Assembly: GCA_001000675.1 (NCBI GenBank)
Contig: LCHW01000002.1
Location: 5,310 to 69,309 of the forward strand
Origin: Candidatus Wolfebacteria bacterium GW2011_GWE2_44_13
GTDB taxonomy: Bacteria; Patescibacteriota; Minisyncoccia; UBA6257; UBA9933
Direction: 5' to 3'
DNA: 64,000 bases
Made by a program: the position numbers and the translations under genes
Notes under the pieces: generated by a model
Told to the model about the DNA's origin: nothing
The model's database searches: none
The model's input: only the letters and a program-made list of their open reading frames with translations
Shown: in pieces, positions 1,268 to 37,409 of the stretch
How the letters are laid out: the number at the start of each line of letters is the position of its first letter
Numbering within the stretch: position 1 is the stretch's first letter

Positions 1268-1305
1268 CATATGTCCAAATGTACGGTCGTACATTTGGAC
1301 ATATG
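1268..1305. repeat. 38-bp perfect palindrome CATATGTCCAAATGTACG-GT-CGTACATTTGGACATATG, copy 1
   Basis: Two 18-bp arms are exact reverse complements. A second copy lies at 2038..2075, and the pair flanks the 1387..1977 gene. Confidence 0.85.
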
Positions 1306-1386
1306 TTGTAAGGGGATTGCATGGTATACTATTAAAAGTACGGAGGAGCTCACGAGAAATAAAAAAGAAAAGAGTGACAAGAATAT

Positions 1387-1977
1387 ATGCAATACAATTC
1401 TTCGCAAAAAGTTTTAGAAGCAATCAGCGAGGGGATTATATTTCCCTTGGATCTTTTTGAAGCGATTATCGAAAGCGGGTACGGAGCATCGAGCAGGAAG
1501 ATCGAAAATAGTTTTTATAAGATAAAAAACGGGAGAGCAAGGGAACAATTCAAAAAAGAAGAAGAGAAAAGAAGGAGGAAGGCATATGCCAGTCTTATGT
1601 ATAAATTAAAAAGAGATGGGTTAGTAAAAGAGAGCGGAGAAGGGGAAGAAAAGGAATATGCGCTTACTGTCAAAGGGGAACAAAAGTTAGAGATATTAAA
1701 AAGCAAAGATGGGTTTCCTGACACGTATTACACAAAGGAAAAAAGCAATAAGATTATTATCGTCATGTTCGATATTCCAGAGAAGGATGTGAGAAAGAGA
1801 ACTTGGCTGCGAATGGTATTAAACAATCTAGATTTTAAAATGGCACAAAAAAGTGTGTGGATTGGAAAGACGACAATACCGAAAGAACTGATAGGGGATC
1901 TTATGCGAATGCAGCTAGAAAGTTTCGTGGAAATATTTGAAGTAGGAAATACAGGAAACCTAAAGAATATCTTATAG
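1387..1977 (+). CDS. winged-HTH + Cas2-like (PaaX-like architecture) protein, flanked by palindromes
   Basis: 196 aa. The N-terminal half has a wHTH-like character (KAYASLMYKLKRDGLVKE). The C-terminal segment IIIVMFDIPEKDVRKRTWLRMVLNNLDFKMAQKSVWIG matches the Cas2/PaaX_C core pattern: a hydrophobic beta-strand, then [YF]D, R.R, L, and Q.SV[FW]. No cas1 gene or CRISPR array is nearby. Confidence 0.45.
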   Translation: MQYNSSQKVLEAISEGIIFPLDLFEAIIESGYGASSRKIENSFYKIKNGRAREQFKKEEEKRRRKAYASLMYKLKRDGLVKESGEGEEKEYALTVKGEQKLEILKSKDGFPDTYYTKEKSNKIIIVMFDIPEKDVRKRTWLRMVLNNLDFKMAQKSVWIGKTTIPKELIGDLMRMQLESFVEIFEVGNTGNLKNIL

Positions 1978-2037
1978 AAGGAATTGTGTCGGGAGTATGT
2001 CTATGTATCCGGGATAAGAAAATATACATATGTCCAA

Positions 2038-2075
2038 ATGTACGACCGTACATTTGGACATATAGGTAGGGGAAA
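2038..2075. repeat. 38-bp palindrome copy 2 (centre AC instead of GT, so inverted relative to copy 1)
   Basis: CATATGTCCAAATGTACG-AC-CGTACATTTGGACATAT(a); the arms are identical to copy 1. Confidence 0.85.
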
Positions 2076-2143
2076 AGGAAGATGAGGAACTGATCTGATA
2101 AGAAAAGGGAATTGCACAGCGCGATTCCCTTTTCTTATGTGTG

Positions 2144-2225
2144 TGCCGGGGACAGGACTTGAACCTGCATACCTTGCGGTGCTTGCTCCTAAGGCAAGTG
2201 CGTCTGCCAATTTCGCCACCCCGGC
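2144..2225 (-). tRNA. tRNA-Leu (anticodon TAG), type II with long variable arm
   Basis: The reverse complement reads GCCGGGGTGGCGAAATTGGCAGACGCA-CTTGC CTTAGGA GCAAG-CACCGCAAGGTATG-CAGGTTCAAGTCCTG-TCCCCGGC-A. It has a 7-bp acceptor stem, a D-loop, an anticodon loop CUUAGGA, and a T-loop GGTTCAAGTCC. Confidence 0.8.
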
Positions 2226-3349: not shown

Positions 3350-3887
3350 GCCGGCGACAGCACCCGGCAAGATGGAAAGTCTCGGCGCATCCCTCTTCAA
3401 ATGGGGGGTCGCCATATTGATCATCGTTGGAGGGTGGAACATGCTCTTCGGCGATGAAGCAAAGCCCGCCGCAGGCGTTGCGGTAACTGAGGCGACGCGG
3501 CAATATGCTGCGGCGCACGACTTTTCAAAGGTGGGGGACGATTTCCACAAAGTGTCCTTCACTGTTCCCGCTGGCGATAAATGGGTGTCGGTTGCATTGC
3601 CTGCAGACTATCACGTGGCATTCACGTGGAATGAAGCGGGAGGGATTGATAAAGGCGATGGGAAAGGCCCTCGCTGGTTCAAGAAAGACGAAAAGGTAAA
3701 GTTGGGTACGCTGGGAACGGCGGTCGACTTAACCTTCCCCGCAGGAGACACCGTGGAGGTACGGTTTTACCGACACGGGAAAACCGCACCTTCGCTCAAA
3801 ACCGCTGACACAGGGAAGAAACCAGCGGCAGCAAAAGAGAAGGAGGAGTTGAGGCCGGTTATCGTCGCCGGCTACGAACAGAAGTAA
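3327..3887 (+). CDS. membrane-anchored beta-rich protein, possible NfeD-like partner of the SPFH protein
   Basis: ATG at 3327 follows a GGAGGA RBS and overlaps the upstream stop by 23 nt, which suggests translational coupling. It has one TM helix (WGVAILIIVGGW) and a beta-rich C-terminal domain. Confidence 0.45.
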   Translation: MAEKEKAKPATAPGKMESLGASLFKWGVAILIIVGGWNMLFGDEAKPAAGVAVTEATRQYAAAHDFSKVGDDFHKVSFTVPAGDKWVSVALPADYHVAFTWNEAGGIDKGDGKGPRWFKKDEKVKLGTLGTAVDLTFPAGDTVEVRFYRHGKTAPSLKTADTGKKPAAAKEKEELRPVIVAGYEQK

Positions 3888-3917
3888 ATAGGGAAGTGGC
3901 AACGCTTCCCACGATAG

Positions 3918-3952
3918 CAAAAGCCCCCGAATATCGGGGGCTTTCTTTTTTA
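3918..3952. terminator. bidirectional terminator AAAAGCCCCCGAtatCGGGGGCTTTCTTTTTT between convergent genes
   Basis: GC hairpin flanked by an A run and a T run. Confidence 0.6.
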
Positions 3953-3971
3953 TTAACTAGAATACAGCTAC

Positions 3972-4316
3972 TTAGAGAGCTCCACCTGCGATTGCCTTTG
4001 CAACCTCGATAAGTCCCTTTGTAAGCGCACCAACGACGACTGCTACGAGAGCATAGGTAAGTGCTCTGCGAGCTTCGGTTACCTTTTTCTCGTCTCCTCC
4101 GCCTGTGAGGAACTTGAATGCGGCAAGCAAGATGTATACTGCTGCAACCGCAAGCAAGATAGCAAACATCCAGTTGCCAACTTTGTTAAGAATGGCAACG
4201 ATTGGTTCGACCCCTGTACCTACTGGTGCTGCTCCCCCAGGAAGGTTTTGAGCAAAACCGATAGCTGGCATAGCAAGTGCCACTGCTGTTACTGATGCTA
4301 GTGATATTTTTTTCAT
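3972..4316 (-). CDS. VirB2/TrbC-like small membrane protein (pilin-like) 1 of 3
   Basis: 114 aa: signal peptide, Gly-rich mature N-terminus, hydrophobic helix, a charged loop (TGGGDEKKVTEARRA), and a second hydrophobic helix. This is the T4SS-pilin architecture. Confidence 0.45.
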   Translation of the reverse strand: MKKISLASVTAVALAMPAIGFAQNLPGGAAPVGTGVEPIVAILNKVGNWMFAILLAVAAVYILLAAFKFLTGGGDEKKVTEARRALTYALVAVVVGALTKGLIEVAKAIAGGAL

Positions 4317-4348
4317 ATATATAGTATATCAAATAATACGACCTTTGT

Positions 4349-4726
4349 TCAAGCGCCAAGACCAATAACAAGTCCCTTAAAGATAGCAACCAGCCCGCGC
4401 GCAAGAATGATAATAACTAAACCGCCGAGTGCATAAACAATCGTTTGTCTACCAGTAATTATCTTTTTAGGGTCTCCTTGAGCAGTCATAATCTGAAATG
4501 CACCATAAAGAATCATGATGGCGGCCAACGAAGCTGCAATAGTGATGCCATATTCGATGACGCGATTAAGAACATCGGTAATCGTGGCGTCTCCAAAAGG
4601 ACTTGTAAATTTAACCGAAGATCCAATGGGTGCGTTGGGCGTTGTATCACCTTCAGCGCCGCCTACTGCGAGTACGGTTGACGTGAAAAGCGGAAAAGAA
4701 ATAATTGTTGCAAGTATTTTATACAT
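4349..4726 (-). CDS. VirB2/TrbC-like small membrane protein 2 of 3
   Basis: 125 aa with the same architecture (signal peptide and two hydrophobic helices separated by a QGDPKK loop). Confidence 0.45.
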   Translation of the reverse strand: MYKILATIISFPLFTSTVLAVGGAEGDTTPNAPIGSSVKFTSPFGDATITDVLNRVIEYGITIAASLAAIMILYGAFQIMTAQGDPKKIITGRQTIVYALGGLVIIILARGLVAIFKGLVIGLGA

Positions 4727-4754
4727 AAGAATGAAGTGTAAGGAATTTGCTGGG

Positions 4755-5153
4755 TTACTGGCAGTTTAGGTCTCTCCATGGCACGCCGTAGACGTCTCCG
4801 GTGCCAGTGAGTGCCCGCATGAGGATATCGACGAGAAACCATGCAGCAAGAACAAGAGCAAGTCCCTGGAGGGCTTGGAAAATGTGCGACTTACCTTTTG
4901 CGTACATCCCCGGGTTTGCGCCAGAAATCATCATTTGGTAGCCACCAAACATAATGAAGGCGACGGCAAGTATAATGGCTGCTTGCGATACAAAACTATA
5001 TATCGCCTTAACGGTTTCAAATAATGCGCAAAGAGAGCAGGATGTCGGATTCTGCTCATCGCATTGCACAAGACCAGAGCCAAAAACAGTAGGTGCTGCT
5101 AACAGGAAAACAAACGAGAGGGATAGGAGAGAAGCTAACAGAAGTTTTTTCAT
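4755..5153 (-). CDS. VirB2/TrbC-like small membrane protein 3 of 3 (Cys-containing variant)
   Basis: 132 aa; signal peptide, a Cys-rich segment (CDEQNPTSCSLC), and two hydrophobic helices. Confidence 0.4.
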   Translation of the reverse strand: MKKLLLASLLSLSFVFLLAAPTVFGSGLVQCDEQNPTSCSLCALFETVKAIYSFVSQAAIILAVAFIMFGGYQMMISGANPGMYAKGKSHIFQALQGLALVLAAWFLVDILMRALTGTGDVYGVPWRDLNCQ

Positions 5154-12058: not shown

Positions 12059-12100
12059 AAAATACGTGCTAAAAGAGGGGAAATATGTAAAATAATGGGA

Positions 12101-12140
12101 AAATGACAGTGGTGGACGACCGTCCACCGCTGTCATTTTT
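12101..12140. repeat. 16-bp-stem hairpin AAAATGACAGTGGTGGACG/CGTCCACCGCTGTCATTTTT
   Basis: Long near-perfect inverted repeat flanked by A and T runs. It may be a second (bidirectional) terminator or a structured element. Confidence 0.5.
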
Positions 12141-15180: not shown

Positions 15181-15210
15181 AAAAAAATCCGCTTCGGCGG
15201 ATTTTTTGTT
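15181..15210 (+). terminator. terminator AAAAAAATCCGCttcgGCGGATTTTTTGTT after rplS
   Basis: Hairpin followed by a T run. It belongs to the same motif family as the terminators inside the SBP array. Confidence 0.7.
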
Positions 15211-15213
15211 CTT

Positions 15214-15240
15214 GTCATTCCCGCAAAAGCGGGAATCCAG
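15214..15240. repeat. REP-like element half copy B (GTCATTCCCGCAAAAGCGGGAATCCAG)
   Basis: Matches the left arm of the 60-bp element; the right arm is absent. Confidence 0.7.
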
Positions 15241-15297
15241 AATTTATGGAGACGTAGTTTGGTAGACGCTATTACCTTGAGGCGGTATAATGAATAT

Positions 15298-17877: not shown

Positions 17878-17886
17878 ATGAGAATT

Positions 17887-17946
17887 GTCATTCCCGCGGA
17901 GGCGGGAATCCAGAACTTTATAGATTCCCGCCTCCGCGGGAATGAC
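17887..17946. repeat. REP/MITE-like palindromic element copy C (full, 60 bp)
   Basis: GTCATTCCCGCGGAGGCGGGAATCCAG-aactttata-GATTCCCGCCTCCGCGGGAATGAC. Arms are perfectly complementary. Confidence 0.9.
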
Positions 17947-17993
17947 AGATATAGTTATGTTTTTTACTTTAGTAACCACATCTCGCATCTAAT

Positions 17994-19484
17994 ATGCGTA
18001 TCCACGAATCCGTATTCTGGGGAATCGTGTTTTTTCTTGTTGGTACTTTTCTTGCACCCTCAATGCGGCTTATCGGAATAACTATTTTAGTGGGAGTCTT
18101 CGCGCTTGCGCTAGGATTATTTGCATATCGAAAAAAGAATAAGCGCATGCTGTGGTTCGCGATACTTGCAACGGGCACTATTTTCGGTGCAATGTATTGG
18201 ACTGGGTTTAATGTATATCAAAAAAATAAAATAATTGAGTTGATTGGGGATAAAGGCGCAATAGAGGGGCATGTAAAATCGGTAAAGCGAAATGAAAAAA
18301 GCCAACAGCTTATTATAAGCATCGACGCACAAAACAACGGAAAAGTTTCAGTCACCGCTCGGCCATATCCAGTGTTGCGCTACGGAGATGCAGTACGTGT
18401 TAACGGAATAGTAAAAAGGCCGAGCGAAAAAGAGAAAATGTATGCATTGAAAAACGGAGTGTTTGCGACGATGCAATTTCCCGAAGTGCAGATACTAAAG
18501 CAGGGTGATGGCAATGCAATAATGATGTGGCTATTGGGCGTAAAACAAAAAGCAGTTACAACATACGGGCGACTATTGCCCACAAAAGAAGCTGCGCTGT
18601 TGGCAGGTATTACGCTTGGCGAGCGCGCAGAGTTTAGTGTGGAGTTTAAACAGCAGATGGCAAATAGCGGAACAACGCACCTTGTCGCACTGTCGGGATA
18701 TAACATAAGTGTGGTTGCAGGAGCGGTATTGCTCATATGTGGGCTTATATTGCGCCGCAGGGCGGCGTTTTATGCAACATTGGTAGTAGTTGTGGCTTTT
18801 GTCGTTATGGCGGGCGCTGAAGCGTCTGTGGTCCGTGCAGCAATTATGGGAAGTATTGTGTTGTTAGCTGGATATATCGGACAGGCGCACAGCATGCGAA
18901 ATGCAATTGCGGTAAGCGCCTGCGCGATGGTGCTGTGGAATCCGAATGTCTTGCGGTATGATCTTGGGTTTCAACTTTCCTTTCTCGCACTTTTGGGAAT
19001 TGTATATCTAAAGCCACATCTCGATGCAATTATTAAAAATAAAAAAGCTGGCATTCTTGAATGGCGTGAAAATCTTTCAGGGACATTGTCCGCGCAGATA
19101 ATGGTGTTTCCAATATTAATGCATGCAATTGGATCGTTCTCACTTGTATCGCTACTTTCTAATATAGTAATCCTCGCCTTTATTCCTGTGACAATGGGGC
19201 TCGGATTTGCAATCGCAGGGCTCGGATTTTTTGCGAGTTCATTAGCATTTATTCCCGCATGGATTGTTTCGTTATTATTGCAGTATGAGATTGCGGTGAT
19301 AGAACTATTCGGAAATTATGAGGGCTTATCAATACCCATGAATCCGATTTGGATATTTGTATACTATATAATGGTTGGAGGAATACTATCCTATTTGCAG
19401 AAGCGGAAAAAGGAGGTAGCGCTATGTCATTCCCGCGGAGGCGGGAATCCAGTACAACCGTCTGCCGAAGGCGGTATAAAATGA
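17994..19484 (+). CDS. comEC: ComEC/Rec2 competence channel domain (N-terminal part of a split comEC)
   Basis: 496 aa polytopic membrane protein with ComEC competence-domain signatures (TTHLVALSGYNISVVAGAVLL...). The last about 20 codons are encoded by a REP half copy. Confidence 0.8.
   Translation: MRIHESVFWGIVFFLVGTFLAPSMRLIGITILVGVFALALGLFAYRKKNKRMLWFAILATGTIFGAMYWTGFNVYQKNKIIELIGDKGAIEGHVKSVKRNEKSQQLIISIDAQNNGKVSVTARPYPVLRYGDAVRVNGIVKRPSEKEKMYALKNGVFATMQFPEVQILKQGDGNAIMMWLLGVKQKAVTTYGRLLPTKEAALLAGITLGERAEFSVEFKQQMANSGTTHLVALSGYNISVVAGAVLLICGLILRRRAAFYATLVVVVAFVVMAGAEASVVRAAIMGSIVLLAGYIGQAHSMRNAIAVSACAMVLWNPNVLRYDLGFQLSFLALLGIVYLKPHLDAIIKNKKAGILEWRENLSGTLSAQIMVFPILMHAIGSFSLVSLLSNIVILAFIPVTMGLGFAIAGLGFFASSLAFIPAWIVSLLLQYEIAVIELFGNYEGLSIPMNPIWIFVYYIMVGGILSYLQKRKKEVALCHSRGGGNPVQPSAEGGIK
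19426..19452. repeat. REP-like element half copy D, inside the 3' end of the comEC N-part
   Basis: GTCATTCCCGCGGAGGCGGGAATCCAG, left arm only. Confidence 0.75.
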
Positions 19485-26109: not shown

Positions 26110-27252
26110 ATGGATACACAGCAAGCAGCGGGAATAGGTGGAAAGAAAATCGCATTGTGGGCGGTGATTGCATTAGTGGTAATCGGAGGCGGTTGGATGG
26201 TAATAAAAAAGCCATCGCAGGTAAACGCAGAACCAATTAAAATAGGGTTCATCGCGCCGCTGACGGGAGATGCTGGCAGCTACGGCGTAAATGCCAAGGC
26301 AGCGGCAGAACTTGCAGTAGAAGAAATAAATAGTATGGGAGGAATTAACGGAAGGACTATTCAGCTAATTGCAGAAGATGGAAAGTGTACCGGAAAAGAC
26401 GCAAGCTCCGCGGCAAATAAATTGATAAATATCGACAAGGTAACGGCCATTGTCGGAGGGTTTTGCTCAGGCGAAACAATGGCATTTACTGACCTAGCAG
26501 AACAGACAAAAACCATCGTAATTTCCGAAGCTTCGTCAAACCCGGCAATTACAAATGCCGGAGACTATATATTTAGAGACTATGCATCTGATACGGCACA
26601 GGGAAAAGCTGCAGCAGAATTTATCTATAACAAGCTAGGTAAAAAGAAGGTTGCTGTGTTGTACGTAAATATCGATTGGGGCAAAGGGGTAAAGGATGTA
26701 TTTATCAGTGAGTATAAGAAGCTAGGAGGGGAAATAGTTATAGAAGAAAGTTATACGCAGGGAAGCAGGGATATGCGGTCGCAACTCGCTAAAGTTAAGC
26801 AGTCTAACCCTGATGTTTTGTATTTCCTGAGCTTTACGGATGATGCGGTTATTGGGCTAAAGCAGGCAAAGACCCTCGGCCTAAATCTTCCTATTGTCGG
26901 AGGAGATGCGTTTGATGGGCCTCAGTTTTATTCAGATCCAATAGCGGATGGAATTATGTACGTGGCATCCCTCGTACCCTCAAATGAAGCTTTTGAAGCA
27001 AAAATGGCTACCAAAACGGGGAGTGATGTGATAAATGCCGGCGCTCCTCAGGCATACGACGCAGTCAAGATACTGGGTGATGTTATGCGAAAGGTAGGAA
27101 CAAATACAGAGCTAATAAAAAATGCCTTGTACGAAGTGAAGGATTATCAAGGGGTTTCGGGTACTATCGGGTTTGATAGTAATGGAGACCTTGCAACGCC
27201 AAACTTAATTATTAAATTGATTAAGGATGGAAAAGCAGAACAATTGAAATAA
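26110..27252 (+). CDS. LivK-type substrate-binding protein 3 (no paired TrmB)
   Basis: IKIGFIAPLTGDAGSYGVNAKAAAELAVEEINSMGGINGRTIQLIAEDGKCTG... The track start at 26089 is TTG; the in-frame ATG is at 26110. Confidence 0.85.
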   Translation: MDTQQAAGIGGKKIALWAVIALVVIGGGWMVIKKPSQVNAEPIKIGFIAPLTGDAGSYGVNAKAAAELAVEEINSMGGINGRTIQLIAEDGKCTGKDASSAANKLINIDKVTAIVGGFCSGETMAFTDLAEQTKTIVISEASSNPAITNAGDYIFRDYASDTAQGKAAAEFIYNKLGKKKVAVLYVNIDWGKGVKDVFISEYKKLGGEIVIEESYTQGSRDMRSQLAKVKQSNPDVLYFLSFTDDAVIGLKQAKTLGLNLPIVGGDAFDGPQFYSDPIADGIMYVASLVPSNEAFEAKMATKTGSDVINAGAPQAYDAVKILGDVMRKVGTNTELIKNALYEVKDYQGVSGTIGFDSNGDLATPNLIIKLIKDGKAEQLK

Positions 27253-27258
27253 ACCCTT

Positions 27259-27300
27259 TAAAACCACCCGTTCGCCATCTGGCGAACGGGTGGTTTTTTA
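27259..27300. terminator. bidirectional terminator AAAACCACCCGTTCGCCAtctGGCGAACGGGTGGTTTTTT
   Basis: Identical core to the terminator at 29352. Confidence 0.75.
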
Positions 27301-27311
27301 ATTGAGCCGCT

Positions 27312-28055
27312 TCATTTCAAAAACTTCCACAGCAATTCAAACGACATACGGTGGAGCTGGTGGATCTCGGGGCTTTCGATAATAACCCCCATGAAGTTTT
27401 CCTTGAACGAAATAAGAGCGACCTTATTCGCATAAATTTCGGCATCTGCAATAAAAGGGAAATCTTTACCGGGTACGATCTTTATCTCGCGGAGTTCTTT
27501 TACGTCATTTTTTTGCCACTCACGCGCAAGGGGGGAGTCGGGAGCGATAACTTTGATTCGAATTTTCTTTGCGACACGTTGACGGATATAATCGTTCGAA
27601 AATTCTTCAGGGACTAATTTGTCGAAATCGGTGAGACCGGCATAGTCGAGTATGGTATCCCCTGAATTACACGAAGTGAGCGTATCGGCAAATAGTTCCC
27701 TTGCACCACCGAGACCCTCAAAGTAGGTAATTTTAGGCTTGCTAGGGAGAATGCTTTGGAGTGCTGCAAATTGTGGTAGAGCGCGTTCGAGGCGCTGGAT
27801 CTTCATATCAAGCCCCGTCTTAAGAGATCGGGGGTCGTCAATATAAAAAAAGCGCTTCGATTTTCTGCTTCCAGCCTGGACAACGCCATCCGCCATAAGC
27901 TCGGGGATAAGATTGTATACTGTGGTTCGCTTAATGCCGGTTTTACGGGAAATATCCAGTATAGAGGCTTCTCCGAGTTCTAAAATAGCCAAGTAAATCT
28001 TGGATTTTTTAGGGCTGTAGCCAATGTTTTCGAGGAGATCTTCTAGTCTATTCAT
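27312..28055 (-). CDS. TrmB-family transcriptional regulator 3
   Basis: LLENIGYSPKKSKIYLAILELGEASILDISRKTGIKRTTVYNLI... Confidence 0.75.
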   Translation of the reverse strand: MNRLEDLLENIGYSPKKSKIYLAILELGEASILDISRKTGIKRTTVYNLIPELMADGVVQAGSRKSKRFFYIDDPRSLKTGLDMKIQRLERALPQFAALQSILPSKPKITYFEGLGGARELFADTLTSCNSGDTILDYAGLTDFDKLVPEEFSNDYIRQRVAKKIRIKVIAPDSPLAREWQKNDVKELREIKIVPGKDFPFIADAEIYANKVALISFKENFMGVIIESPEIHQLHRMSFELLWKFLK

Positions 28056-28058
28056 AAT

Positions 28059-28078
28059 ATGTCTACCATTTTAGACAT
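28059..28078. promoter_or_regulatory. candidate TrmB3 operator ATGTCTA-N6-TAGACAT (perfect 7-bp arms)
   Basis: Lies 4 bp upstream of the trmB3 start codon, in the region divergent from SBP4. Confidence 0.45.
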
Positions 28079-28221
28079 CAAAATTATAGCAAAAATAGTG
28101 CAATATAGTCAATTTTAAAGGCATTTTTGCATAAGTTGACAGAAGTAGTATAACATTGTCTGACACAAGTTTTAAAATGTGGCATTGTGAGGTTAATAAA
28201 TTAATCAATCAATTTGTAACC

Positions 28222-29346
28222 ATGCAAAAAAAAATAAAAACAGTTTTATCAATCATCGTGGTGGCATTGGTCCTGTGGGGCGGATATGCTATGGCCACAA
28301 ACCAAAAAGGTCTCGGAAATCAAACAATCACAATCGGCGCTGTGTTGCCACTTAGCGGTGATCTCGCGGTATATGGGGAAGGTGCAAAGAATGCCGCCAT
28401 CATGGCAATTGAGGACGCGGGTATGAAGGATAGTGTAAAGTTCATTGTAGAAGACGATAAAGGATGTGCACCGGTTGGAGGCGTGAGTGCGGCCCAAAAG
28501 TTATTAAATGTAGATAAGGTAAATGCTATCTATGGGCCAATGTGTTCATCTGAGGCGCTTTCGGTAGCACCGCTCACTGAGCCATTAAAGATCCCGATGG
28601 TCATCGGTGCTGCGACATCAAAAACATTGAGCGGTGCGGGGAACTATATATTTAGGACTATCGCATCAGACTCAGTGCGCGCATATGCAGTTGCAAATTA
28701 TGCGTACGCGAAAGGATTCAAAAAAGCTGCGTTCATATTTGATAGCAGTCAGGACGCATTGATTCAAGAAAAGAACGATGCAAAAGAAGCATTCATGAAA
28801 GCGGGCGGAGAGACAGTTTTAGAGGAATCATTCGGAGCGAAGGATGTTGATTTCAAAACTCAACTCAGTAAAATAAAAAATTCGGGTGCGGACGTAATAT
28901 TTGTAGGTGCGTTCTACAAACCGACAGCACTGATCATCAAACAGGCACGCCAGATGAATATCAATGTGCAGTTTGTAGGAACGGACGAATCAGTGGATGT
29001 GAAGGAATTCTTTGCAGTTGGAGGGAACTATCTTGAAGGAGTTATCGCTCCTGCAATGGTGAAGCCAGACACGGAAGAAGCGAAGTCATTTAAAGCGCGA
29101 TACAAGGCGCGCTTTGGAATCGACGCGACCATTTATACCGCTGAAGGATATGATGCAATGGCGTTATTACTTAAAGCAATTAAGACGGAGGGGTTAGGAG
29201 GCGACCAAATCAAGGCAGGATTGCTCAAGGTGGGCAACAATTACCCAGGAGCAAGCGGAATCATAACCTTTAACAGTAAAGGTGACGTAGAAAAGCCCGC
29301 AGTCGTGAAGGCTGTAAAAAGCGGAGTATTTGAAGAAGTAAAGTAA
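28222..29346 (+). CDS. LivK-type substrate-binding protein 4 (recent duplicate of SBP1)
   Basis: ATG at 28222 gives MQKKIKTVLSIIVVALVLWGG.... About 80% identical to SBP1. Confidence 0.85.
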   Translation: MQKKIKTVLSIIVVALVLWGGYAMATNQKGLGNQTITIGAVLPLSGDLAVYGEGAKNAAIMAIEDAGMKDSVKFIVEDDKGCAPVGGVSAAQKLLNVDKVNAIYGPMCSSEALSVAPLTEPLKIPMVIGAATSKTLSGAGNYIFRTIASDSVRAYAVANYAYAKGFKKAAFIFDSSQDALIQEKNDAKEAFMKAGGETVLEESFGAKDVDFKTQLSKIKNSGADVIFVGAFYKPTALIIKQARQMNINVQFVGTDESVDVKEFFAVGGNYLEGVIAPAMVKPDTEEAKSFKARYKARFGIDATIYTAEGYDAMALLLKAIKTEGLGGDQIKAGLLKVGNNYPGASGIITFNSKGDVEKPAVVKAVKSGVFEEVK

Positions 29347-29351
29347 ACCCT

Positions 29352-29390
29352 AAAACCACCCGTTCGCCATCTGGCGAACGGGTGGTTTTT
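29352..29390 (+). terminator. intra-operon terminator/attenuator between SBP4 and livH
   Basis: AAAACCACCCGTTCGCCAtctGGCGAACGGGTGGTTTTT. livH starts 34 nt downstream on the same strand. Confidence 0.65.
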
Positions 29391-29423
29391 AGTTCAAAGC
29401 GAAAACCTGTATAATTAAACGCA

Positions 29424-30293
29424 ATGGGTATTATTCCACAAATCATCGCCAATAGTATTATCGCTGGAGCAATCTATGCGCTTGTGGCACTTGGCTTTAA
29501 TCTTATTTATCGCGCGACAAACTTTTTTAACCTCGCACACGGAGCCGTTTCGGTGGTGGGTGGATATATCGTGTTTGGGTTATATCGATTGTTAGGATTG
29601 CCATTATGGATCGCAATCATTTGTGGGGTGCTTGGTTCGGGAGTTGTGGGCTATGTATTAGAAAAAATACTATTTCTCCCATTGCGCAAAAGGAAGTCTT
29701 CACAGATGGTCCTTATTGTTGCCTCGCTCGGCGCATTCACGATTATTCAGGCGGTTATCGCGATTATCTTTTCAAGTCAATTCCAAACGCTGTTTGATAG
29801 CAGTATGGAGACAAAACTCTATCAGATCGGGGGAGGCATTATCACGCAGGTGCAGCTGATTATATTGATAGCAGCATTGCTTATTATGGGGACGCTTGCG
29901 TGGGTAAAGGAGCGAACCATGTTCGGGAAAATGGTGAGCGCGATTAGCGACGACGCAGTTGTTGCGCGCATTGTGGGCATCAACACAAATAAATTAATAG
30001 GACGCGTATTCTTCATCGGTTCGGCAATCGCAGGGTTTGCGGGGATTATGATCGGATTCGACACAGGACTCGAGCCGACCATGGGAATGTCATTATTAAT
30101 GAAAGGCGTTATCGCGGCAATCGTAGGAGGGGTGGGTAATATTTACGGAGGTGTGCTCGGTGCATTTCTCCTTGGGTTTGCAGAAAACTTTGGCGTGTGG
30201 CAGGTCTCGGGCGAATGGAAGGATGCGATTGCATTTGCAATCTTAATCCTCTTTTTAATATTTAGGCCGAAGGGTATTCTTGGGAAAAAATAA
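29424..30293 (+). CDS. livH: branched-chain amino acid ABC transporter permease LivH
   Basis: 289 aa with about 8 TM helices; the N-terminus IIANSIIAGAIYALVALGFNLIYRAT is typical of LivH. Confidence 0.85.
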   Translation: MGIIPQIIANSIIAGAIYALVALGFNLIYRATNFFNLAHGAVSVVGGYIVFGLYRLLGLPLWIAIICGVLGSGVVGYVLEKILFLPLRKRKSSQMVLIVASLGAFTIIQAVIAIIFSSQFQTLFDSSMETKLYQIGGGIITQVQLIILIAALLIMGTLAWVKERTMFGKMVSAISDDAVVARIVGINTNKLIGRVFFIGSAIAGFAGIMIGFDTGLEPTMGMSLLMKGVIAAIVGGVGNIYGGVLGAFLLGFAENFGVWQVSGEWKDAIAFAILILFLIFRPKGILGKK

Positions 30294-30295
30294 GT

Positions 30296-31165
30296 ATGGA
30301 ATATATCATCCACCTCATAATTTTATTCGGTATCTATGGCATCCTTGCATTAAGCTTGGATCTTATCGTTGGGTTTACCGGATTGCTCTCGTTGTCACAC
30401 GCGGCATTCTATGGCATCGGTGCATATGCTGTTGCGGTACTAAGTACCACCTATGGTATGAACTTTTTTGTTGCCGCGTTGATTGGTATGAGCGTTGCGG
30501 CTGTTGTCGCACTGATGATTGGTTTTGTGTTAAGAAAATTCAAAGATGATTACTATGCGCTCGCATCGTTTGGATTTAACGTAATCGCAGTGAGCATCTT
30601 TTTAAACTGGGAATCAATAACAAAAGGCCCGCTCGGTATTCCAGGGATTAAGCGACCGGAACTGTTTGGATTTGTATTTTCGACGAACACGCTCTATATG
30701 ATTTTGACGCTAGCACTCTTTGCATTGACTGCGCTATTTGTGTGGCATATAACGAAGTCTTCATTTGGACGAGTGTTGCGAGCGATTCGAGAAGATGAAA
30801 AAGCACTGGAAGTATTTGGATATCGCATTACGCGGTATAAGCTTGCCATTTATGTCATTAGCGGGGCTCTAGCTGCCCTTGCGGGGGCGCTATACGCCTC
30901 GTATATCACGTACGTAGATCCATCTACCTTTACGGCGAATGAGTCCATCGTAATCCTTTCCATGATTATTTTAGGAGGGCTGGCGAGTTTGCGCGGGGCA
31001 ATCGTAGGGGCTGCAATTTTAATCGCCCTCCCCGAGGCGCTTCGGTTTGTGGGACTTCCAATGGACGTTGCCGCGCAACTTCGACAGGTAATTTATGGCC
31101 TTATTCTCGCCCTCCTCATGCTCTACCGCCCAAAGGGAATGTACGGGGAATATGAGATGAAATAA
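30296..31165 (+). CDS. livM: branched-chain amino acid ABC transporter permease LivM
   Basis: 289 aa; ILALSLDLIVGFTGLLSLSHAAFYGIGAY matches the LivM family. Confidence 0.85.
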   Translation: MEYIIHLIILFGIYGILALSLDLIVGFTGLLSLSHAAFYGIGAYAVAVLSTTYGMNFFVAALIGMSVAAVVALMIGFVLRKFKDDYYALASFGFNVIAVSIFLNWESITKGPLGIPGIKRPELFGFVFSTNTLYMILTLALFALTALFVWHITKSSFGRVLRAIREDEKALEVFGYRITRYKLAIYVISGALAALAGALYASYITYVDPSTFTANESIVILSMIILGGLASLRGAIVGAAILIALPEALRFVGLPMDVAAQLRQVIYGLILALLMLYRPKGMYGEYEMK

Positions 31166-31229
31166 AGGAGTTGTAAATATTATTTACAAATATATTGACA
31201 ATATATTTTACATGCAGTAATATAGGTGC

Positions 31230-32000
31230 ATGATTAAGAATCTTCAGGAGCTGCGAAAGAAAAACGAAGTATCTCAAGAGTATCTGGCAAGCTACCTCGG
31301 TATTTCGCGGCCCACGGTAGAGAAAATAGAAAAAGGCGAGAAGGACATCACCGTTTCGCAAGCAAAAAAACTGGCAAAATTATTCGAGCTCTCTCTGGAC
31401 GAGCTTATTAGTGGAAAAGTGAAAAGAACTATAGAAGTAACAATAGAGAAGGCAGTGGCAGCGGAACAAAAAGAAGCAATGGAAATCAGGATAAGCGTGC
31501 CACAAAAAAAGCTTAAAAAATTTAAGGAGGTATTGTTGTATATTTTGGAGCGGGTGGGAAGTAAGCCAAACGTAGGGATGACAGTAATCTACAAGCTACT
31601 TTACTTTATTGATTTCGATTATTATGAAAAATTCGAAGAGCAGCTTATCGGAGCTACGTATATTAAAAACCATTTTGGGCCAACCCCCGTGGAGTTTAAA
31701 AAAATAGTGGAGGCAATGGAGGAGCGCAAAGAGCTCGAATCTATTAAAAGTAAATACTTTGAGAAGGATCAAAAGAAATATCTCCCTTTGAGAAGGGCCG
31801 ATATCAGTGCGTTCTCGGGAGAAGAAATAAAACACATCGACGATATATTAAATAAGCTTGCCGACAAGTCGGCTAAGGAGCTTAGTGACTACTCGCATAA
31901 GGATGTTCCGTGGATAGCGGCTGAGGATGGAGAGCCAATTGATTACGAGTCAGTATTTTATAGAACTAAAGAAACCTCCGTTCGTGAGTATGAAAATTAA
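31230..32000 (+). CDS. HTH-XRE + Panacea (DUF4065/SocA-like) domain antitoxin
   Basis: N-terminal XRE HTH (LRKKNEVSQEYLASYLGISRPTVEKIEKGEKD) fused to a C-terminal domain (YKLLYFIDFDYYEKFEEQLIGATYIKNHFGPTP) typical of DUF4065. Confidence 0.6.
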   Translation: MIKNLQELRKKNEVSQEYLASYLGISRPTVEKIEKGEKDITVSQAKKLAKLFELSLDELISGKVKRTIEVTIEKAVAAEQKEAMEIRISVPQKKLKKFKEVLLYILERVGSKPNVGMTVIYKLLYFIDFDYYEKFEEQLIGATYIKNHFGPTPVEFKKIVEAMEERKELESIKSKYFEKDQKKYLPLRRADISAFSGEEIKHIDDILNKLADKSAKELSDYSHKDVPWIAAEDGEPIDYESVFYRTKETSVREYEN

Positions 32001-32364
32001 ATATCGAGAAACTGATGCGTTTTACAAGGATCTAAAAAAGCTTCTAAAGAAATTTGTAACATTGGAGGCTGATTTACGTGTTGCAAAAACCAACGCCATA
32101 GAAATGTATCATATAAAAAATGTTGATAACGAATCGGTATTTGCGTTGCAACATTTCTGCAGTGAAAATGTGCGGGTGTATAAACTAAAGAAATTTGCTT
32201 GCAAGTGCCTAAAGGGAAGAGGGATGAAAAGCGGAATACGAGTAATATATGCGTATTACCCTAAGGATTATGTTGTTGAGTTTGTCGAGATATATTTTAA
32301 AGGAGTGAAGGAAAATGAAGACAAGGAAAGAATAAAGGAGTATATAAAAGCGATTATAGAATAG
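31990..32364 (+). CDS. RelE/ParE-superfamily toxin-like protein
   Basis: ATG overlaps the upstream stop by 11 nt. FYKDLKKLLKKF...GIRVIYAYYPKDYVVEFVEIYFKG fits the RelE/ParE pattern. Confidence 0.5.
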   Translation: MKIKYRETDAFYKDLKKLLKKFVTLEADLRVAKTNAIEMYHIKNVDNESVFALQHFCSENVRVYKLKKFACKCLKGRGMKSGIRVIYAYYPKDYVVEFVEIYFKGVKENEDKERIKEYIKAIIE

Positions 32365-32384
32365 AAAATGCTTGAAAGGGCGTT

Positions 32385-33140
32385 CTATACCGGTTTCGAA
32401 TCGAACGATGGCGCCATCATCCATGAACTTTGAAAAATAAGCTTCATAATTTGGGCGAGCTCCTTACTTTCAATAATAAAGCCAAAGCTTTCTTGGCGGG
32501 ATGAGATATAGGCAACCTTATTATCAAAAATACATAGCACACCGCTGAATACGTATTCTTTTGGAAGCCACTTTATTTCTCGAAGGACTTTCTTATTTGA
32601 TTGTAGATAATATTCAGGTATCTTGCTTTGGTTTGTTAAAAGCACCCGCGAGATGACTTCTCGTTTTACTCTTCGTTTTACCCAGCGTTCCATGTAGATA
32701 TTTCCAAATAAATCAATCAAATCGCTCATTGAGCTCCAGAAAAATTGCTCTTTTTGCTCGACAAGCAAAAGCTCTTCCATAATCGCCTTTGCTCCGACAA
32801 ACCCATCATAAAAGCGGATGGCGGGTTTGGGGGTGCTCTGGTTTCTTATTTCTGTTAGAAACGGCAAGAGCTCCTTAAAGGAGGAGAGCCTATCTTCATT
32901 TTTTGAGAGAAGGGTGCTTGGATCTTCTGCAATAAATAATCTCCGTTTTCCTTTTTTCGATTCGGTTATATAGCCCATCTGCAAAAGATCTAAAACGATG
33001 TCATAAACAGTTGTTCGCTTAATCCCCGTCTTATGCGCAATGTCTATGGTGGTTGCTCTGCCCAATTCCAGTATGGCCAAATACACTTCAGATTTTCTTG
33101 CACTCAATCCCTGTCTTACGAGTTCTTTTATGATGTCCAT
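32385..33140 (-). CDS. TrmB-family transcriptional regulator 4
   Basis: ELVRQGLSARKSEVYLAILELGRATTIDIAHKTGIKRTTVYDIV... Confidence 0.75.
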   Translation of the reverse strand: MDIIKELVRQGLSARKSEVYLAILELGRATTIDIAHKTGIKRTTVYDIVLDLLQMGYITESKKGKRRLFIAEDPSTLLSKNEDRLSSFKELLPFLTEIRNQSTPKPAIRFYDGFVGAKAIMEELLLVEQKEQFFWSSMSDLIDLFGNIYMERWVKRRVKREVISRVLLTNQSKIPEYYLQSNKKVLREIKWLPKEYVFSGVLCIFDNKVAYISSRQESFGFIIESKELAQIMKLIFQSSWMMAPSFDSKPV

Positions 33141-33151
33141 AGTTATTTAAA

Positions 33152-33169
33152 TGACGATAAAAACCGTCA
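33152..33169. promoter_or_regulatory. candidate TrmB4 operator TGACG-N8-CGTCA
   Basis: Perfect 5-bp inverted repeat inside AAATGACG...CGTCAAATTT, 12 bp upstream of the trmB4 start. Confidence 0.45.
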
Positions 33170-33252
33170 AATTTATATATTGATTATCAGTTAAGTAAAG
33201 GGTTATTGTCAAGATAACCTAATTCATAAATCAATAAAAAGGTTTAAATGTT

Positions 33253-34386
33253 ATGCATAAAATAATAAAAATAGCGCTCATCCTAGGAATTTGCACAGCA
33301 GTAATTGGAAGCGGGTACTTTTTTACTAAAAGCACTAAAGGAGGCACAATTGATGTCGGCGCTATAGTTCCTTTTACGGGAAGTTCCGCAGTAGTGGGAG
33401 AATTGATAAAAAATGGGTTAGAAATTGCAGCGGAGGAAATTAATAGTAAGGGTGGGGTGAATGGGAAGGTAATTAAACTTATGTTCGAGGACAACCAAAC
33501 CAAGACGGAAGTAGGGCTGTCTGCCTTTATGAAATTGAAAGACATTAATAAAGTTAAGTATGTGATTACGAGTGTGAGCGGGGTTGCTCTGGCAATCTCT
33601 CCTGTTGCTAACGAAAACAAGATAGTTCAAATGGATGTAGTTGCCGCTACTCCTAAATATTCGACGCCAGACGACTTTACGTTTAGAACAGGGGTGAGCT
33701 CGTATTTTTTCGCACGAGAGATGGCAAAGTTAATGATAGATAGAAATATAAAAGATGCTGGCATTCTCTTCGTGAATACTGAGTACGGGCAAGGGTTTAA
33801 GGATGTTTTTCAAAATGAATATACCGAAAGAGGAGGGGTAATATCCGTTGCAGAAGGATACGGGCAAGAGGATAAAGATTTTAGAACGCAATTAACAAAA
33901 ATAAAAAGTAGAAATCCTGAGGCACTACTATTAGTATCACTGCAAAAGGAAGCATCCACAATTCTTAAACAGATGGGCGAGCTAAAAATGGACACGCCTA
34001 TCTATTCGGATGTGTATGCAATGGAGCAAGAGAGTAATTTAAAACTGGCGGAGAATTTAAAAATTTACTATTTTAAACCGACAGTAGATTATATAAGTAG
34101 TGACGCGGCAACAACATTTGAAAATGCATATAAAAATAAATATGGAAAAGAGCCGGATTTTATAGCAGCGCAAGCATATGATGGGATAAACCTATTGGTG
34201 GCTGCAATACAAAAATGTAATGATTATAAAAATACCGTTTGTGTAAAAGATGCATTATATGCGTTAAGGGATGTTAAGGGGGTAATATCGGAGCATATGG
34301 ATTTTGATGTAAATGGAGACATAATGAATAGGCCGCTAGAATTACGAACAATTATTGGCGGAAAATTTGTTGGGATAAAAACTTAG
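33253..34386 (+). CDS. LivK-type substrate-binding protein 5
   Basis: TM anchor followed by IDVGAIVPFTGSSAVVGELIKNGLEIAAEEINSKGGVNGK... Confidence 0.85.
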   Translation: MHKIIKIALILGICTAVIGSGYFFTKSTKGGTIDVGAIVPFTGSSAVVGELIKNGLEIAAEEINSKGGVNGKVIKLMFEDNQTKTEVGLSAFMKLKDINKVKYVITSVSGVALAISPVANENKIVQMDVVAATPKYSTPDDFTFRTGVSSYFFAREMAKLMIDRNIKDAGILFVNTEYGQGFKDVFQNEYTERGGVISVAEGYGQEDKDFRTQLTKIKSRNPEALLLVSLQKEASTILKQMGELKMDTPIYSDVYAMEQESNLKLAENLKIYYFKPTVDYISSDAATTFENAYKNKYGKEPDFIAAQAYDGINLLVAAIQKCNDYKNTVCVKDALYALRDVKGVISEHMDFDVNGDIMNRPLELRTIIGGKFVGIKT

Positions 34387-34484
34387 TAATGGCTATCAGA
34401 CAAACTGCCCTTGTAGGGGCATTTTGTTATGGTAAACTGTTACCATGGTTATGGTAAATAGACACCATAAAATGTATTTCGATT

Positions 34485-35219
34485 ATGGACGCACTACGCA
34501 TTAAAAATATTAAAAAACGATATCAAGAAGTGGTTGCAATCGATGACCTCTCTATTGTGATAGAGAAAGGAATTGTAACCGGTATTGTTGGTCCGAATGG
34601 CTCGGGCAAGTCAACTGCAATGAATATCATTAGCGGGATGATTTCTATGGACGATGGTGCATTAGTTATTGGAGAAAAAGAAACGCTAAAACGTATGTTG
34701 CCGTACGAAGCACCGGTCTATGGTATTACACGAACATTTCAGGAGGTGCGCCTGTGGGAACAGATGTCGGTGCTCGACAATCTTCTCGTTGTACTTACTG
34801 ATCGTGATTTACTGGATGCATTTTTTGAACGACATGGTGCATTTCATTTAGAACAGGCAGAAGTAATTTTGAAGCGCGTAGATATGTGGGGGAAAAAAGA
34901 TGCGCTTGTTGCAAATCTTTCGTATGGGCAACGAAAATTAATTGAAATAGCACGCGCGCTTGCAATGGGTGCGAACATCTATTTGTTTGACGAGCCATTT
35001 GCAGGATTGTTCCCAGAAATGCGCAAGATAGTAACTGCGGTTATTAAAGAATTGAAGCAGGAAGGAAAGACGGTGATTTTAATTGAACATAACATGGGGC
35101 TTATTCGAGAGCTTTGCGACCATCTAATTGTAATGGATAGTGGAAAACTGCTCGCCGAAGGCAAGCCCGAAGAGGTGCTTGCGCGGAGAGATGTTGTGGA
35201 GGCGTATTTGGGGGAATGA
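34485..35219 (+). CDS. livG: branched-chain amino acid ABC transporter ATP-binding protein LivG
   Basis: Walker A GPNGSGKST, signature SYGQRKLIEIARAL, Walker B IYLFDEPFAG. Length and the missing C-terminal extension fit LivG. Confidence 0.8.
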   Translation: MDALRIKNIKKRYQEVVAIDDLSIVIEKGIVTGIVGPNGSGKSTAMNIISGMISMDDGALVIGEKETLKRMLPYEAPVYGITRTFQEVRLWEQMSVLDNLLVVLTDRDLLDAFFERHGAFHLEQAEVILKRVDMWGKKDALVANLSYGQRKLIEIARALAMGANIYLFDEPFAGLFPEMRKIVTAVIKELKQEGKTVILIEHNMGLIRELCDHLIVMDSGKLLAEGKPEEVLARRDVVEAYLGE

Positions 35220-35256
35220 GATGATAAATGTTTAATTACTAATTTCTAATAACTAA

Positions 35257-35293
35257 TAAAAAATCCTCCGTCATTTGGCGGAGGATTTTTTTA
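35257..35293. terminator. bidirectional terminator AAAAAATCCTCCGtcatttggCGGAGGATTTTTTT
   Basis: Hairpin between the convergent livG and trmB5 ends. Confidence 0.6.
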
Positions 35294-36050: not shown

Positions 36051-36079
36051 GTATAAAGAATAGAGGTATATCGCAAGCA

Positions 36080-37363: not shown

Positions 37364-37367
37364 AAAC

Positions 37368-37400: not shown

Positions 37401-37409
37401 CGTAGAAGA

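Follow-up and report, generated by a model that had tools for sequence, protein, structure and literature searches.

A short PaaX-like gene of Candidatus Wolfebacteria and the pair of long palindromes that flanks it: a probable autoregulatory unit

Background

The Patescibacteria, or candidate phyla radiation (CPR), have tiny genomes in which very few regulators have been characterised. Here we describe a gene of Candidatus Wolfebacteria bacterium GW2011_GWE2_44_13 that lies between two copies of a long palindrome, near the start of the 64-kb stretch of DNA that was analysed and that we call the window throughout. Its protein of 196 amino acids (aa) consists of a winged helix-turn-helix (wHTH) and a Cas2-like domain and nothing else, and we refer to it as 'mini-PaaX'. 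We consider it probable that this protein acts as an autoregulated dimeric repressor, with the palindrome as its cognate operator. The domains are already known, as is an operator logic akin to that of PaaX; the palindrome-gene-palindrome architecture, the paralog-specific code of the palindromes, their invariant centre and their solo copies elsewhere were not found described in the searchable literature.

Results

The locus and its two palindromes

The features of the locus, with their positions in the window, are:

1268-1305, no strand: copy A, the upstream palindrome, CATATGTCCAAATGTACG-GT-CGTACATTTGGACATATG, with 18-bp perfect arms around GT
1322-1330, plus strand: predicted extended -10 element TGgTATACT, 17 bp after copy A and 57 nt before the ATG
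1387-1977, plus strand: mini-PaaX gene, an open reading frame (ORF) of 196 aa
1387-1716, plus strand: N-terminal PadR/PaaX-type wHTH, aa 1-110, assigned by weak profile matches, the structural model and a fold match
1738-1968, plus strand: C-terminal Cas2-like ferredoxin-fold domain, aa 118-194, assigned by Pfam, alignment, the model and Foldseek
2027-2064, no strand: copy B, the downstream palindrome, which is copy A with an AC centre and with A instead of G as its final base, leaving 17-bp perfect arms
2098-2138, no strand: a separate hairpin between copy B and the tRNA gene, with 18-nt arms that are 94% complementary and T-rich tails on both strands
2143-2225, minus strand: convergent tRNA-Leu(UAG) gene, the downstream neighbour of the mini-PaaX gene

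The first-pass annotation of this DNA had described two 38-bp palindromes with perfect 18-bp arms, about 80 bp upstream and about 60 bp downstream of the ORF. This was accurate for copy A, which ends 81 bp before the ATG, whereas copy B has the shorter arms listed above and starts 49 bp after the stop codon. Paired as an inverted repeat, positions 1269-1306 and 2026-2063 are complementary at 38 of 38 bases, and no palindrome match was obtained in 100 dinucleotide-preserving shuffles of the window. A search for more copies of the 38-mer, confined to the 64-kb window and made with half-site and two-box patterns, gave no third copy. In copy A, each half-site combines the inner box ACG, adjoining the dyad, with the outer box ATGTCC, which occupies positions 10-15. 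The different centres of the two copies had been taken to mean that they are in inverted orientation; this turned out to be uninformative, as the central dinucleotide is unconstrained and both copies have the same orientation in the orthologous loci L001 and L077 (L numbers designate the related loci and contigs).

The mini-PaaX protein

A hypothetical protein recorded for Candidatus Wolfebacteria GW2011_GWE2_44_13 matches the 196-aa sequence with 100% identity. The expectation of a wHTH joined to a solo Cas2-like domain was borne out: in Pfam, aa 124-187 match PaaX_M ('PaaX central Cas2-like domain') with 38.4 bits (cut-off 24) and CRISPR_Cas2 with 25.4 bits (cut-off 23.8), and the structural model and a top fold match to PaaX agree. 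The label 'PaaX_C-type' given earlier to this domain was wrong, the correct Pfam name being PaaX_M; PaaX_C gave no Pfam match, and the protein stops right after the Cas2-like domain. The Cas2 profile TIGR01573 scores 22.4 bits, just below its cut-off of 24.5, and the PaaX equivalog TIGR02277 scores 14.6 bits, far under its cut-off of 264.55. In the N-terminal half there are weak winged-helix matches to PadR, HTH_45, MarR, F93 and Csa3 (Pfam, profile and PADLOC searches). It is here that the family varies: the putative recognition helix spans aa 57-76, the wing aa 80-93, and a charged helical insertion is also present.

The Cas2-like domain is the most conserved region of the protein, with the invariant motifs FDxPE, R138, W140, SxWxG and E185. 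The profile of the family aligns with Cas2 SSO8090 (PDB 3exc) so that FDIPE...QKSVW lies on the YDV...QRSAF core, and D129, invariant in 107 sequences, falls on the β1 Asp of that protein (the Asp of YDV). We take this Asp to be the catalytic residue of Cas2; catalysis by mini-PaaX would be putative. Other conserved acidic residues are also present. An AlphaFold model built with the 107 sequences has a mean pLDDT (predicted local distance difference test) of 76.7, reaching 86-94 in the Cas2-like domain, and consists of a helical wHTH with a β-hairpin wing, followed by a β-α-β-β-α-β domain. With this model, Foldseek placed E. coli PaaX (8a39) first among PDB entries (E 3.5e-3, 201 aligned columns), followed by many Cas2 chains (probability 0.9-0.99) and the PaaX-like structures 3kfw and 3l09. 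Cas2 proteins are dimers. The Cas2-like domain of mini-PaaX is probably a dimerisation module, and it is possible that it has a conserved extra function, either contact with or cleavage at the invariant centre of the palindrome described below.

The family is large, with 708 clusters at 50% identity (E ≤ 1e-30), all of about 185-215 aa. Many members are called 'CRISPR-associated endonuclease Cas2' in databases, which is probably a mis-annotation, because they are wHTH fusions and lack a CRISPR context. That no CRISPR accompanies the gene held for the window, where no CRISPR-like array was found; as to cas1, the commonest Pfam families of 140 homolog neighbours include no Cas family, and cas1 was not searched by profile in the window. 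A defence system was considered and rejected, a PADLOC scan having returned only weak Cas2 and Csa3-wHTH similarity. One family member is placed in a Lokiarchaeia metagenome-assembled genome, an archaeal assignment that may be a binning artefact. A phage or mobile-element origin of mini-PaaX was considered and rejected, there being no relatives on viral contigs and no meaningful PHROG match.

Palindrome-gene-palindrome units across relatives

Eighty loci with homologs of 32-63% identity were fetched, making 81 with the window, from Wolfe-, Lipton-, Nomura-, Jorgensen-, Colwell-, Brenner-, Giovannoni-, Harrison- and Portnoybacteria and other Patescibacteria. Two or three mini-PaaX paralogs coexist in several of the genomes. 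Palindromes with arms of at least 15 bp are found at 1.17 per kb within 200 bp of the gene and at 0.07 per kb further off, a 16-fold difference, and at least one long palindrome is present in 64 of the 81 loci. Half-site matching recognises a palindrome in 62 loci, and in about 58 of these the gene has one on both sides. Palindrome length ranges from 32 to 44 bp; in the homolog loci the upstream dyad lies 20-100 bp before the start codon and the downstream dyad 20-180 bp after the stop codon. The centres of the two flanking palindromes are 625-826 bp apart. The two sites show no helical phasing, which is weak evidence at such a distance, since loops of that size need none. The arms are wholly different between loci and between paralogs of the same genome, and yet are common to both copies at one locus.

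In a few loci a third copy also brackets a neighbouring gene, for a LexA-like wHTH protein in L003 (4715-5215, minus strand) and L024 (3802-4251, minus strand) and for a UvrC-like nuclease in L072 (4576-5712, plus strand). The match to the LexA DNA-binding domain is above cut-off in L024 (33.4 bits) and weaker in L003.

Anatomy of the site

The anatomy of the site was derived from 53 within-locus pairs of copies in 43 loci. The centre is almost always ACG-[A/G][T/C]-CGT throughout the family, with ACGATCGT in 66 of 103 sites. Each half-site may have A or G beside the dyad, giving GATC, GGTC, GACC or GGCC, which leaves the central dinucleotide unconstrained. Counting from the dyad, the copies show nearly no differences at positions 1-3 and 10-15, whereas about 25% of the copy pairs differ at positions 4-9 and from position 16 onwards. 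A half-site is thus an inner box plus a locus-specific outer box of 6 bp; from one arm to the other, the outer boxes are separated by 20 bp, and their centres by about 27 bp. No conserved motif was seen in the flanks of the sites, where the signal is at background by position 21.

The putative recognition helix appears to vary with the class of outer box: YYNL.YKLK occurs with CTATCC, Y.SL.YKLK with CTGTCC or ATGTCC, and ..TL..RLK with ATTACA. This tracking is suggestive only, being confounded with phylogeny.

Mismatches between the arms are G.T in 20 cases, A.C in 24 and other in 51, with no bias towards wobble pairs, and no Rfam match was obtained beyond the tRNA-Leu; for these reasons, the constraint acts at the level of DNA, not RNA. 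Differences between the two copies of a locus are compensated in both arms in 87 cases and confined to one arm in 59. Symmetry within a site exceeds identity between copies both at positions 7-9 (0.97-0.98 versus 0.78-0.89) and at positions 16-19 (0.91-0.59 versus 0.71-0.43); the signal of the inner arm is in part due to ascertainment, as palindromes were selected, and that of positions 16-19 is not. A homodimer leaves symmetric differences between sites of one protein unexplained; the simplest cause of arm symmetry would be template-switch correction of quasi-palindromes, templated by a hairpin at replication. It would also explain why only the central dinucleotide, which forms the loop, may be asymmetric. 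Such correction was reportedly described by Ripley in 1982 and by the Lovett laboratory. An alternative cause would be selection for cruciform or hairpin DNA.

Promoters and terminators

Because the extended -10 element TGgTATACT follows the palindrome, copy A would cover the -35 region, and from its sequence it is probably an operator at the promoter of the mini-PaaX gene. In the window and its three closest orthologs (L001, L002 and L077) the hexamer TATACT lies 13-17 bp past the palindrome, or +32 to +39 counted from the dyad. Across the loci, 20 of 47 upstream sites are followed on the sense strand by a -10-like hexamer that starts between +13 and +25 relative to the dyad, most often at +17/+18; at the promoter position of downstream sites, only 4 of 51 have one. 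The inner arm is frequently TTGACG, correctly spaced from the -10-like hexamer at the upstream sites. This overlap with promoters supports autoregulation via the upstream copy. The earlier proposal that the palindromes are operators was in this way upheld for the upstream copy, on the grounds that each homolog has its own palindrome, that the site has a two-box layout and that it overlaps the promoter. Copy B is a second predicted binding site, without a promoter, which may be a loop partner, a roadblock or barrier, a decoy or a relic; the decoy and the roadblock had been proposed earlier, and the loop partner is added to them here.

In at least ten loci (L005, L009, L021, L025, L031, L033, L049, L052, L061 and L072) the distance from the end of a -10-like hexamer to the ATG is exactly 7 nt, which leaves no space for a Shine-Dalgarno sequence upstream of the family gene. 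This suggests that in those Patescibacteria the gene is often expressed as a leaderless mRNA.

A terminator scan found both window copies terminator-like on the minus strand. At the flanks of the sites a T-run is present in 10 of 51 downstream and 3 of 47 upstream cases, and an A-run in 16 of 51 downstream cases. Judging from its arms and tails, the separate hairpin at 2098-2138, absent from the list of the terminator scan, is probably the real bidirectional terminator of the mini-PaaX gene and the tRNA-Leu gene, in which case palindrome B need not be a terminator. We rejected the palindromes as ordinary intrinsic terminators, given that only a minority have T-runs and that this T-tailed hairpin is present in the window.

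Inheritance and gene neighbourhood

The palindrome-gene-palindrome unit is vertically inherited and not recently mobile, because gene order is conserved, including the convergent tRNA-Leu(UAG), and the family was not found on viral contigs. A downstream convergent tRNA-Leu(UAG) occurs in ten loci from several candidate phyla (the window, L001, L002, L077, L012, L006, L009, L022, L023 and L034); in L038 it is upstream and divergent instead. The window, L001, L002 and L077 also have flanking genes in common, and a second orthologous group sits between gyrB and thrS. Four gene-bearing metagenome contigs among the matches listed all have the tRNA-Leu, with a gene for a Xer-type recombinase alongside. 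Paralogs of the same genome are 35-45% identical and have different palindromes, and the family as a whole occupies more than ten distinct genomic contexts.

The 140 neighbours of the homologs (72 upstream, 68 downstream) are housekeeping genes of mixed kinds, without any of the paa pathway or Cas. They include Xer (12, among the 72 upstream neighbours), GyrB (5), RecA (2) and LigA (2), as well as PolA, UvrD, UvrC, ThrS, SPFH and others; the adjacency of Xer represents one inherited gene order. An SOS or DNA-repair regulon, to which recA, an EndoQ-like gene, ligA, uvrC, uvrD, polA, gyrB and the LexA-like neighbours might point, is kept only as a lead, as the enrichment is at most about 2-fold after shared ancestry is allowed for. 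A link of family genes and solo palindromes with DNA repair is possible but unproven. The idea of the palindromes as Xer/dif sites was rejected, since their arms vary between loci and most loci are without a nearby Xer gene.

On the minus strand at 3972-5153 of the window there are three tandem small genes (114-132 aa) with N-terminal hydrophobic segments, which from their sequences look like genes for pilin-like or small membrane proteins. They are kept beside the locus in 16 loci, with 40 paralogs altogether.

Solo palindromes and other repeats

Metagenome contigs were scanned with the pattern TGTCC-N6-ACGNNCGT-N6-GGACA; the matches listed are mostly chance matches. Among them there are at least about 17 distinct perfect family-type palindromes without a nearby family gene, against at least three distinct gene-bearing loci. 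A solo copy in L094 (1182-1211), between recA and a PHP gene of EndoQ-like type, is identical to the 44-bp palindrome found on either side of the L002 and L077 genes; in L062 the same recA-EndoQ junction holds a family gene and its own pair of palindromes (3861-4665). The specificity of the solo palindrome of L094 is that of the other, tRNA-Leu-linked paralog and not that of L062. L145 and L168 have the palindrome of L001 69 bp after trpS, and ligA is followed by a family gene in L025 and L065 and by a solo palindrome in L154. Some solo sites lie between convergent genes, for instance miaA and gatB; family-type sites are found in intergenic DNA beside recA, ligA, trpS, gatB/miaA and a copper ATPase gene. 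A six-frame search with hidden Markov models detected no pseudogene remnants at the solo palindromes. Copy number appears low: orphan palindromes resembling those of the family amount to about 0.6 per 100 kb of flanking DNA, and the palindrome of the window has its two copies in 64 kb.

Another palindrome with a family-type centre is found at 12100-12139 of the window. It is AAAATGACAGTGGTGGACGACCGTCCACCGCTGTCATTTT, with 19-bp arms, one mismatch and a ACGACCGT centre, and it lies beyond the terminator of an rpsA-like gene, with a TTGACA-N17-TGCATACT promoter about 25 bp further on. It is probably not a target of the mini-PaaX of the window, as its outer box TGACAG is opposite in orientation to ATGTCC. 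No gene for a paralog was found in the 64-kb window; the palindrome may serve a paralog whose gene lies elsewhere, or may be fortuitous.

The window also holds repeats of other kinds. The unrelated dispersed repeat TGTCATTCCCGCGGAGGCGGGAATCC has five copies (196-265, 15205-15242, 17878-17947, 19417-19454 and 54822-54891), three of which extend to inverted structures of 64 nt; these look like repetitive extragenic palindromic (REP) sequences or miniature inverted-repeat transposable elements. In the related contig L094, the intergenic DNA between recA and the EndoQ-like gene is filled with similar TTGTCATTCC repeats (760-1100). A terminator-like palindrome, ACTAAAAAATCCGCC..GGCGGATTTTTTAGT, has four copies spaced 2.1-2.4 kb apart, and a 66-nt coding repeat is present in five genes; together they (37360-44025, also 26314-43062) point to a tandem array of paralogous genes with a common terminator. 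Finally, two 100% identical 40-nt palindromes of an A-run and a T-run, TAAAACCACCCGTTCGCCATCTGGCGAACGGGTGGTTTTT, lie 2092 bp apart (27259-27298 and 29351-29390), with repeat pairs nearby at 20859/25924 and 20949/25198.

Discussion

A probable autoregulator and the points against it

The explanation that we consider probable is that mini-PaaX is a dimeric repressor of its own gene and that each palindrome is its cognate operator. Reasoning from the central domain of PaaX, we propose that the Cas2-like domain makes the protein a symmetric dimer, which would be placed on the dyad of the 32-44-bp palindrome. Its two winged helices would read the locus-specific 6-bp outer boxes, ATGTCC/GGACAT in the window, and the conserved Cas2-like dimer would lie over the family-wide centre ACG-RY-CGT. 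With the upstream palindrome overlapping its promoter, the protein would repress its own gene. The downstream copy would most likely form a DNA loop of about 0.7 kb with the upstream site, or else act as a bound barrier at the 3' end of the gene, and the few solo copies elsewhere in the genome would be further targets. The symmetry of the arms would be kept by hairpin-templated correction, in addition to the symmetry imposed by a homodimer.

Several observations weigh against this explanation. Nearly every locus has a downstream site without a promoter, which simple autoregulation would not need, and several solo sites lie between convergent genes, with no promoter to regulate. The sites are far longer and more perfectly symmetric than ordinary operators, and at positions 7-9 and 16-19 their symmetry is greater than the identity between copies. 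The Cas2-like domain and its Asp aligned with β1 are conserved beyond what dimerisation requires, and the protein has no obvious ligand-sensing domain. The spacing of 625-826 bp without helical phasing is a further, weak, point.

Alternative explanations

Some of these points would be accommodated if the gene behaved like a REP-associated tyrosine transposase (RAYT): it would be a domesticated single-copy gene, passed on vertically and lying between two of its own repeats, and its product, a putative Cas2-like nuclease, would act on the palindromes in the form of DNA hairpins or cruciforms, to maintain, spread or process them. In nearly all loci the gene does lie between its repeats, every paralog is matched by a palindrome class of its own, the arms evolve in concert, and the domain retains its invariant Asp and other conserved acidic residues. 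Among the matches listed, solo palindromes outnumber the gene-bearing loci (at least about 17 against at least three), some of them between convergent genes, and L094 and L145 hold the palindromes of L002/L077 and L001, respectively. Vertical inheritance would be no objection, being typical of RAYTs as well, as Bertels and co-workers are said to have found in 2017. However, the copy number of the palindromes appears low, both in the window and as orphans in flanking DNA, whereas a genuine dispersed repeat of the same genome reaches five copies in the window. Perfect dyads with two boxes fit a dimer on duplex DNA, REP sequences being asymmetric; the upstream copies are built into a promoter; and neither Pfam nor Foldseek found an HUH/Y1 fold. 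We regard this alternative as rather unlikely.

A related proposal, in our view unlikely, is that a Cas2-like putative nuclease guided by the wHTH cuts or nicks its own palindromes, perhaps as cruciforms, at ACG-RY-CGT, thereby maintaining, copying or excising palindromes or the genes they bracket. It would account for the solo palindromes, for the filled and empty recA-EndoQ sites, for the concerted arms and for the conservation of the Cas2-like domain. If true, it would be the first DNA-processing role of a Cas2-like domain outside CRISPR, it would make the family the Cas2-fold counterpart of REP/RAYT systems, and it might offer a view of Cas2 acting on palindromic repeats before CRISPR. Taken jointly with the cassette model discussed below, a REP/RAYT-like or cut-and-rejoin mechanism is given a small chance, and is kept alive by the universal downstream copy, by the solo sites between convergent genes, by the length and perfection of the dyads and by the conservation of the Cas2-like domain.

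In a third explanation, mini-PaaX would be a chromosome-organising or barrier protein, in the manner of MatP/matS, ParB/parS or roadblock terminators, with dimers that join far-apart sites or stop RNA polymerase where genes end, and with autoregulation as a secondary role. Downstream and solo sites are not tied to promoters and lie in intergenic DNA by unrelated housekeeping genes, the protein has no ligand domain, and the family is present at one to three copies in many Paceibacteria-type genomes, all of which would suit such a role. Each genome appears to have few sites, however; palindromes specific to each paralog are hard to square with one global architectural function, and bridging is putative. 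We find this explanation quite unlikely.

The first-pass annotation had also offered a compact mobile unit. Recent mobility is not supported, given the synteny of orthologs, the divergence of paralogs and the absence of the family from viral contigs, while the solo palindromes and one apparent filled/empty pair leave room for a history like that of a cassette or of REP sequences. As a cassette, the unit would move by cutting and rejoining at the dyads, and its excision would leave a solo palindrome. The recA-EndoQ junction, filled in L062 and with a single palindrome and no gene remnant in L094, speaks for such a model, as does ligA followed by the gene in two loci and by a solo palindrome in another. 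The many genomic contexts of the family, the unit on the other side of the tRNA-Leu in L038 and the Xer-type recombinase gene among 12 of 72 upstream neighbours point the same way. Nevertheless, the synteny of orthologs extends across several candidate phyla, no genome has identical multi-copy units, and the palindrome of L094 has the specificity of another paralog and not that of L062. Furthermore, the arms are too variable between loci for a conserved Xer recombinase, and the adjacency of Xer is a single inherited gene order. A mobile or recombinational cassette is thus very unlikely.

Readings at the level of RNA, like that of a simple terminator, are unlikely, and that of transcript stem-loops (5' or 3' hairpins or terminators) bound or cut by the Cas2-like domain, which resembles an RNA recognition motif (RRM), extremely so: some Cas2 and VapD proteins are RNases, both window copies are terminator-like on the minus strand and some downstream sites have T- or A-runs at their flanks, but arm mismatches show no preference for G-U wobble, U-tracts are missing at most sites, the upstream copies overlap or precede the -35/-10 elements and are hence mostly outside the transcript, a separate terminator hairpin follows palindrome B in the window, and two boxes with a free spacer fit a dimer that reads duplex DNA.

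Significance of the family

A large uncharacterised family, of about 700 clusters at 50% identity, is here tied to a predicted DNA site. Its specificity code appears readable, with a variable wHTH for the variable 6-bp outer box and a conserved Cas2-like domain for the invariant centre, and the family is directly testable in vitro, no cultivation being required. Recognition of the family would also correct a mis-annotation through which too many 'orphan Cas2' genes are counted in CPR genomes. The constant second site, the solo sites and the preserved dyad symmetry go beyond textbook autoregulation, and if the Cas2-like domain is catalytic, the unit would be a new kind of palindrome-associated element.

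Comparison with known systems

The unit differs from transposons and insertion sequences with terminal inverted repeats, as its paralogs are only 35-45% identical and have different palindromes, and as the synteny of orthologs is kept. With Xer/dif systems (pdif modules and IMEX elements) it shares a short gene module between two palindrome-like sites, and in 12 of 72 cases an upstream Xer gene. In contrast to sites of a conserved Xer, however, its arms differ between loci and between paralogs of one genome; its 8-bp centre with a free dinucleotide and its 9-bp spacers do not fit dif, which is laid out as 11-6-11, and most loci lack an Xer gene in the vicinity.

Looping repressors such as lambda CI (OL/OR), LacI, GalR and DeoR also have near-identical operators on either side of a transcription unit, a few hundred bp apart, with one over the promoter; here the spacing is 625-826 bp. 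Unlike theirs, the mini-PaaX sites bracket the gene of the repressor itself in every family member and are 32-44 bp long, and a tetramer of mini-PaaX is putative.

As in REP/RAYT (TnpA-REP) systems, a vertically inherited single-copy gene lies between two palindromic repeats, the repeat also occurs solo in intergenic regions, and each class of gene has its own class of repeat. Unlike RAYTs, mini-PaaX is a Cas2-like and wHTH protein with no match to HUH/Y1 (IS200-type TnpA) in Pfam, NCBIfam or fold searches. Its sites are perfect dyads with a conserved centre, whereas REP sequences are asymmetric hairpins with a 5' GTAG; REP sequences number tens to hundreds per genome, while the copy number here appears low, with two copies in 64 kb, and solo copies occur in metagenome contigs; and the upstream copy doubles as a predicted promoter operator.

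Cas2 and VapD share with mini-PaaX the ferredoxin-like fold and the β1 Asp, kept in its FDIPE motif. Cas2 is a stand-alone protein of about 90-100 aa, unlike the 196-aa fusion with a wHTH described here, which has no CRISPR array in the window and no Cas among its commonest neighbour families.

The closest relative is PaaX (8a39, 3l09 and 3kfw), the best fold match, in which a PadR-like wHTH is likewise followed by a Cas2-like PaaX_M. The operator of E. coli PaaX is TGATTC-N27-GAATCA and overlaps promoters that include its own (PMC9493321). Both systems have two distant inverted 6-bp boxes overlapping a promoter, binding by mini-PaaX being predicted. PaaX is a repressor that responds to phenylacetyl-CoA; mini-PaaX differs in having no paa genes nearby, and with just 196 aa it is without the C-terminal helical PaaX_C. 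Compared with the operator of PaaX, that predicted for mini-PaaX has its boxes 20 bp apart, an extra invariant centre ACG-RY-CGT and the form of a wholly perfect palindrome, with a second copy always after the gene.

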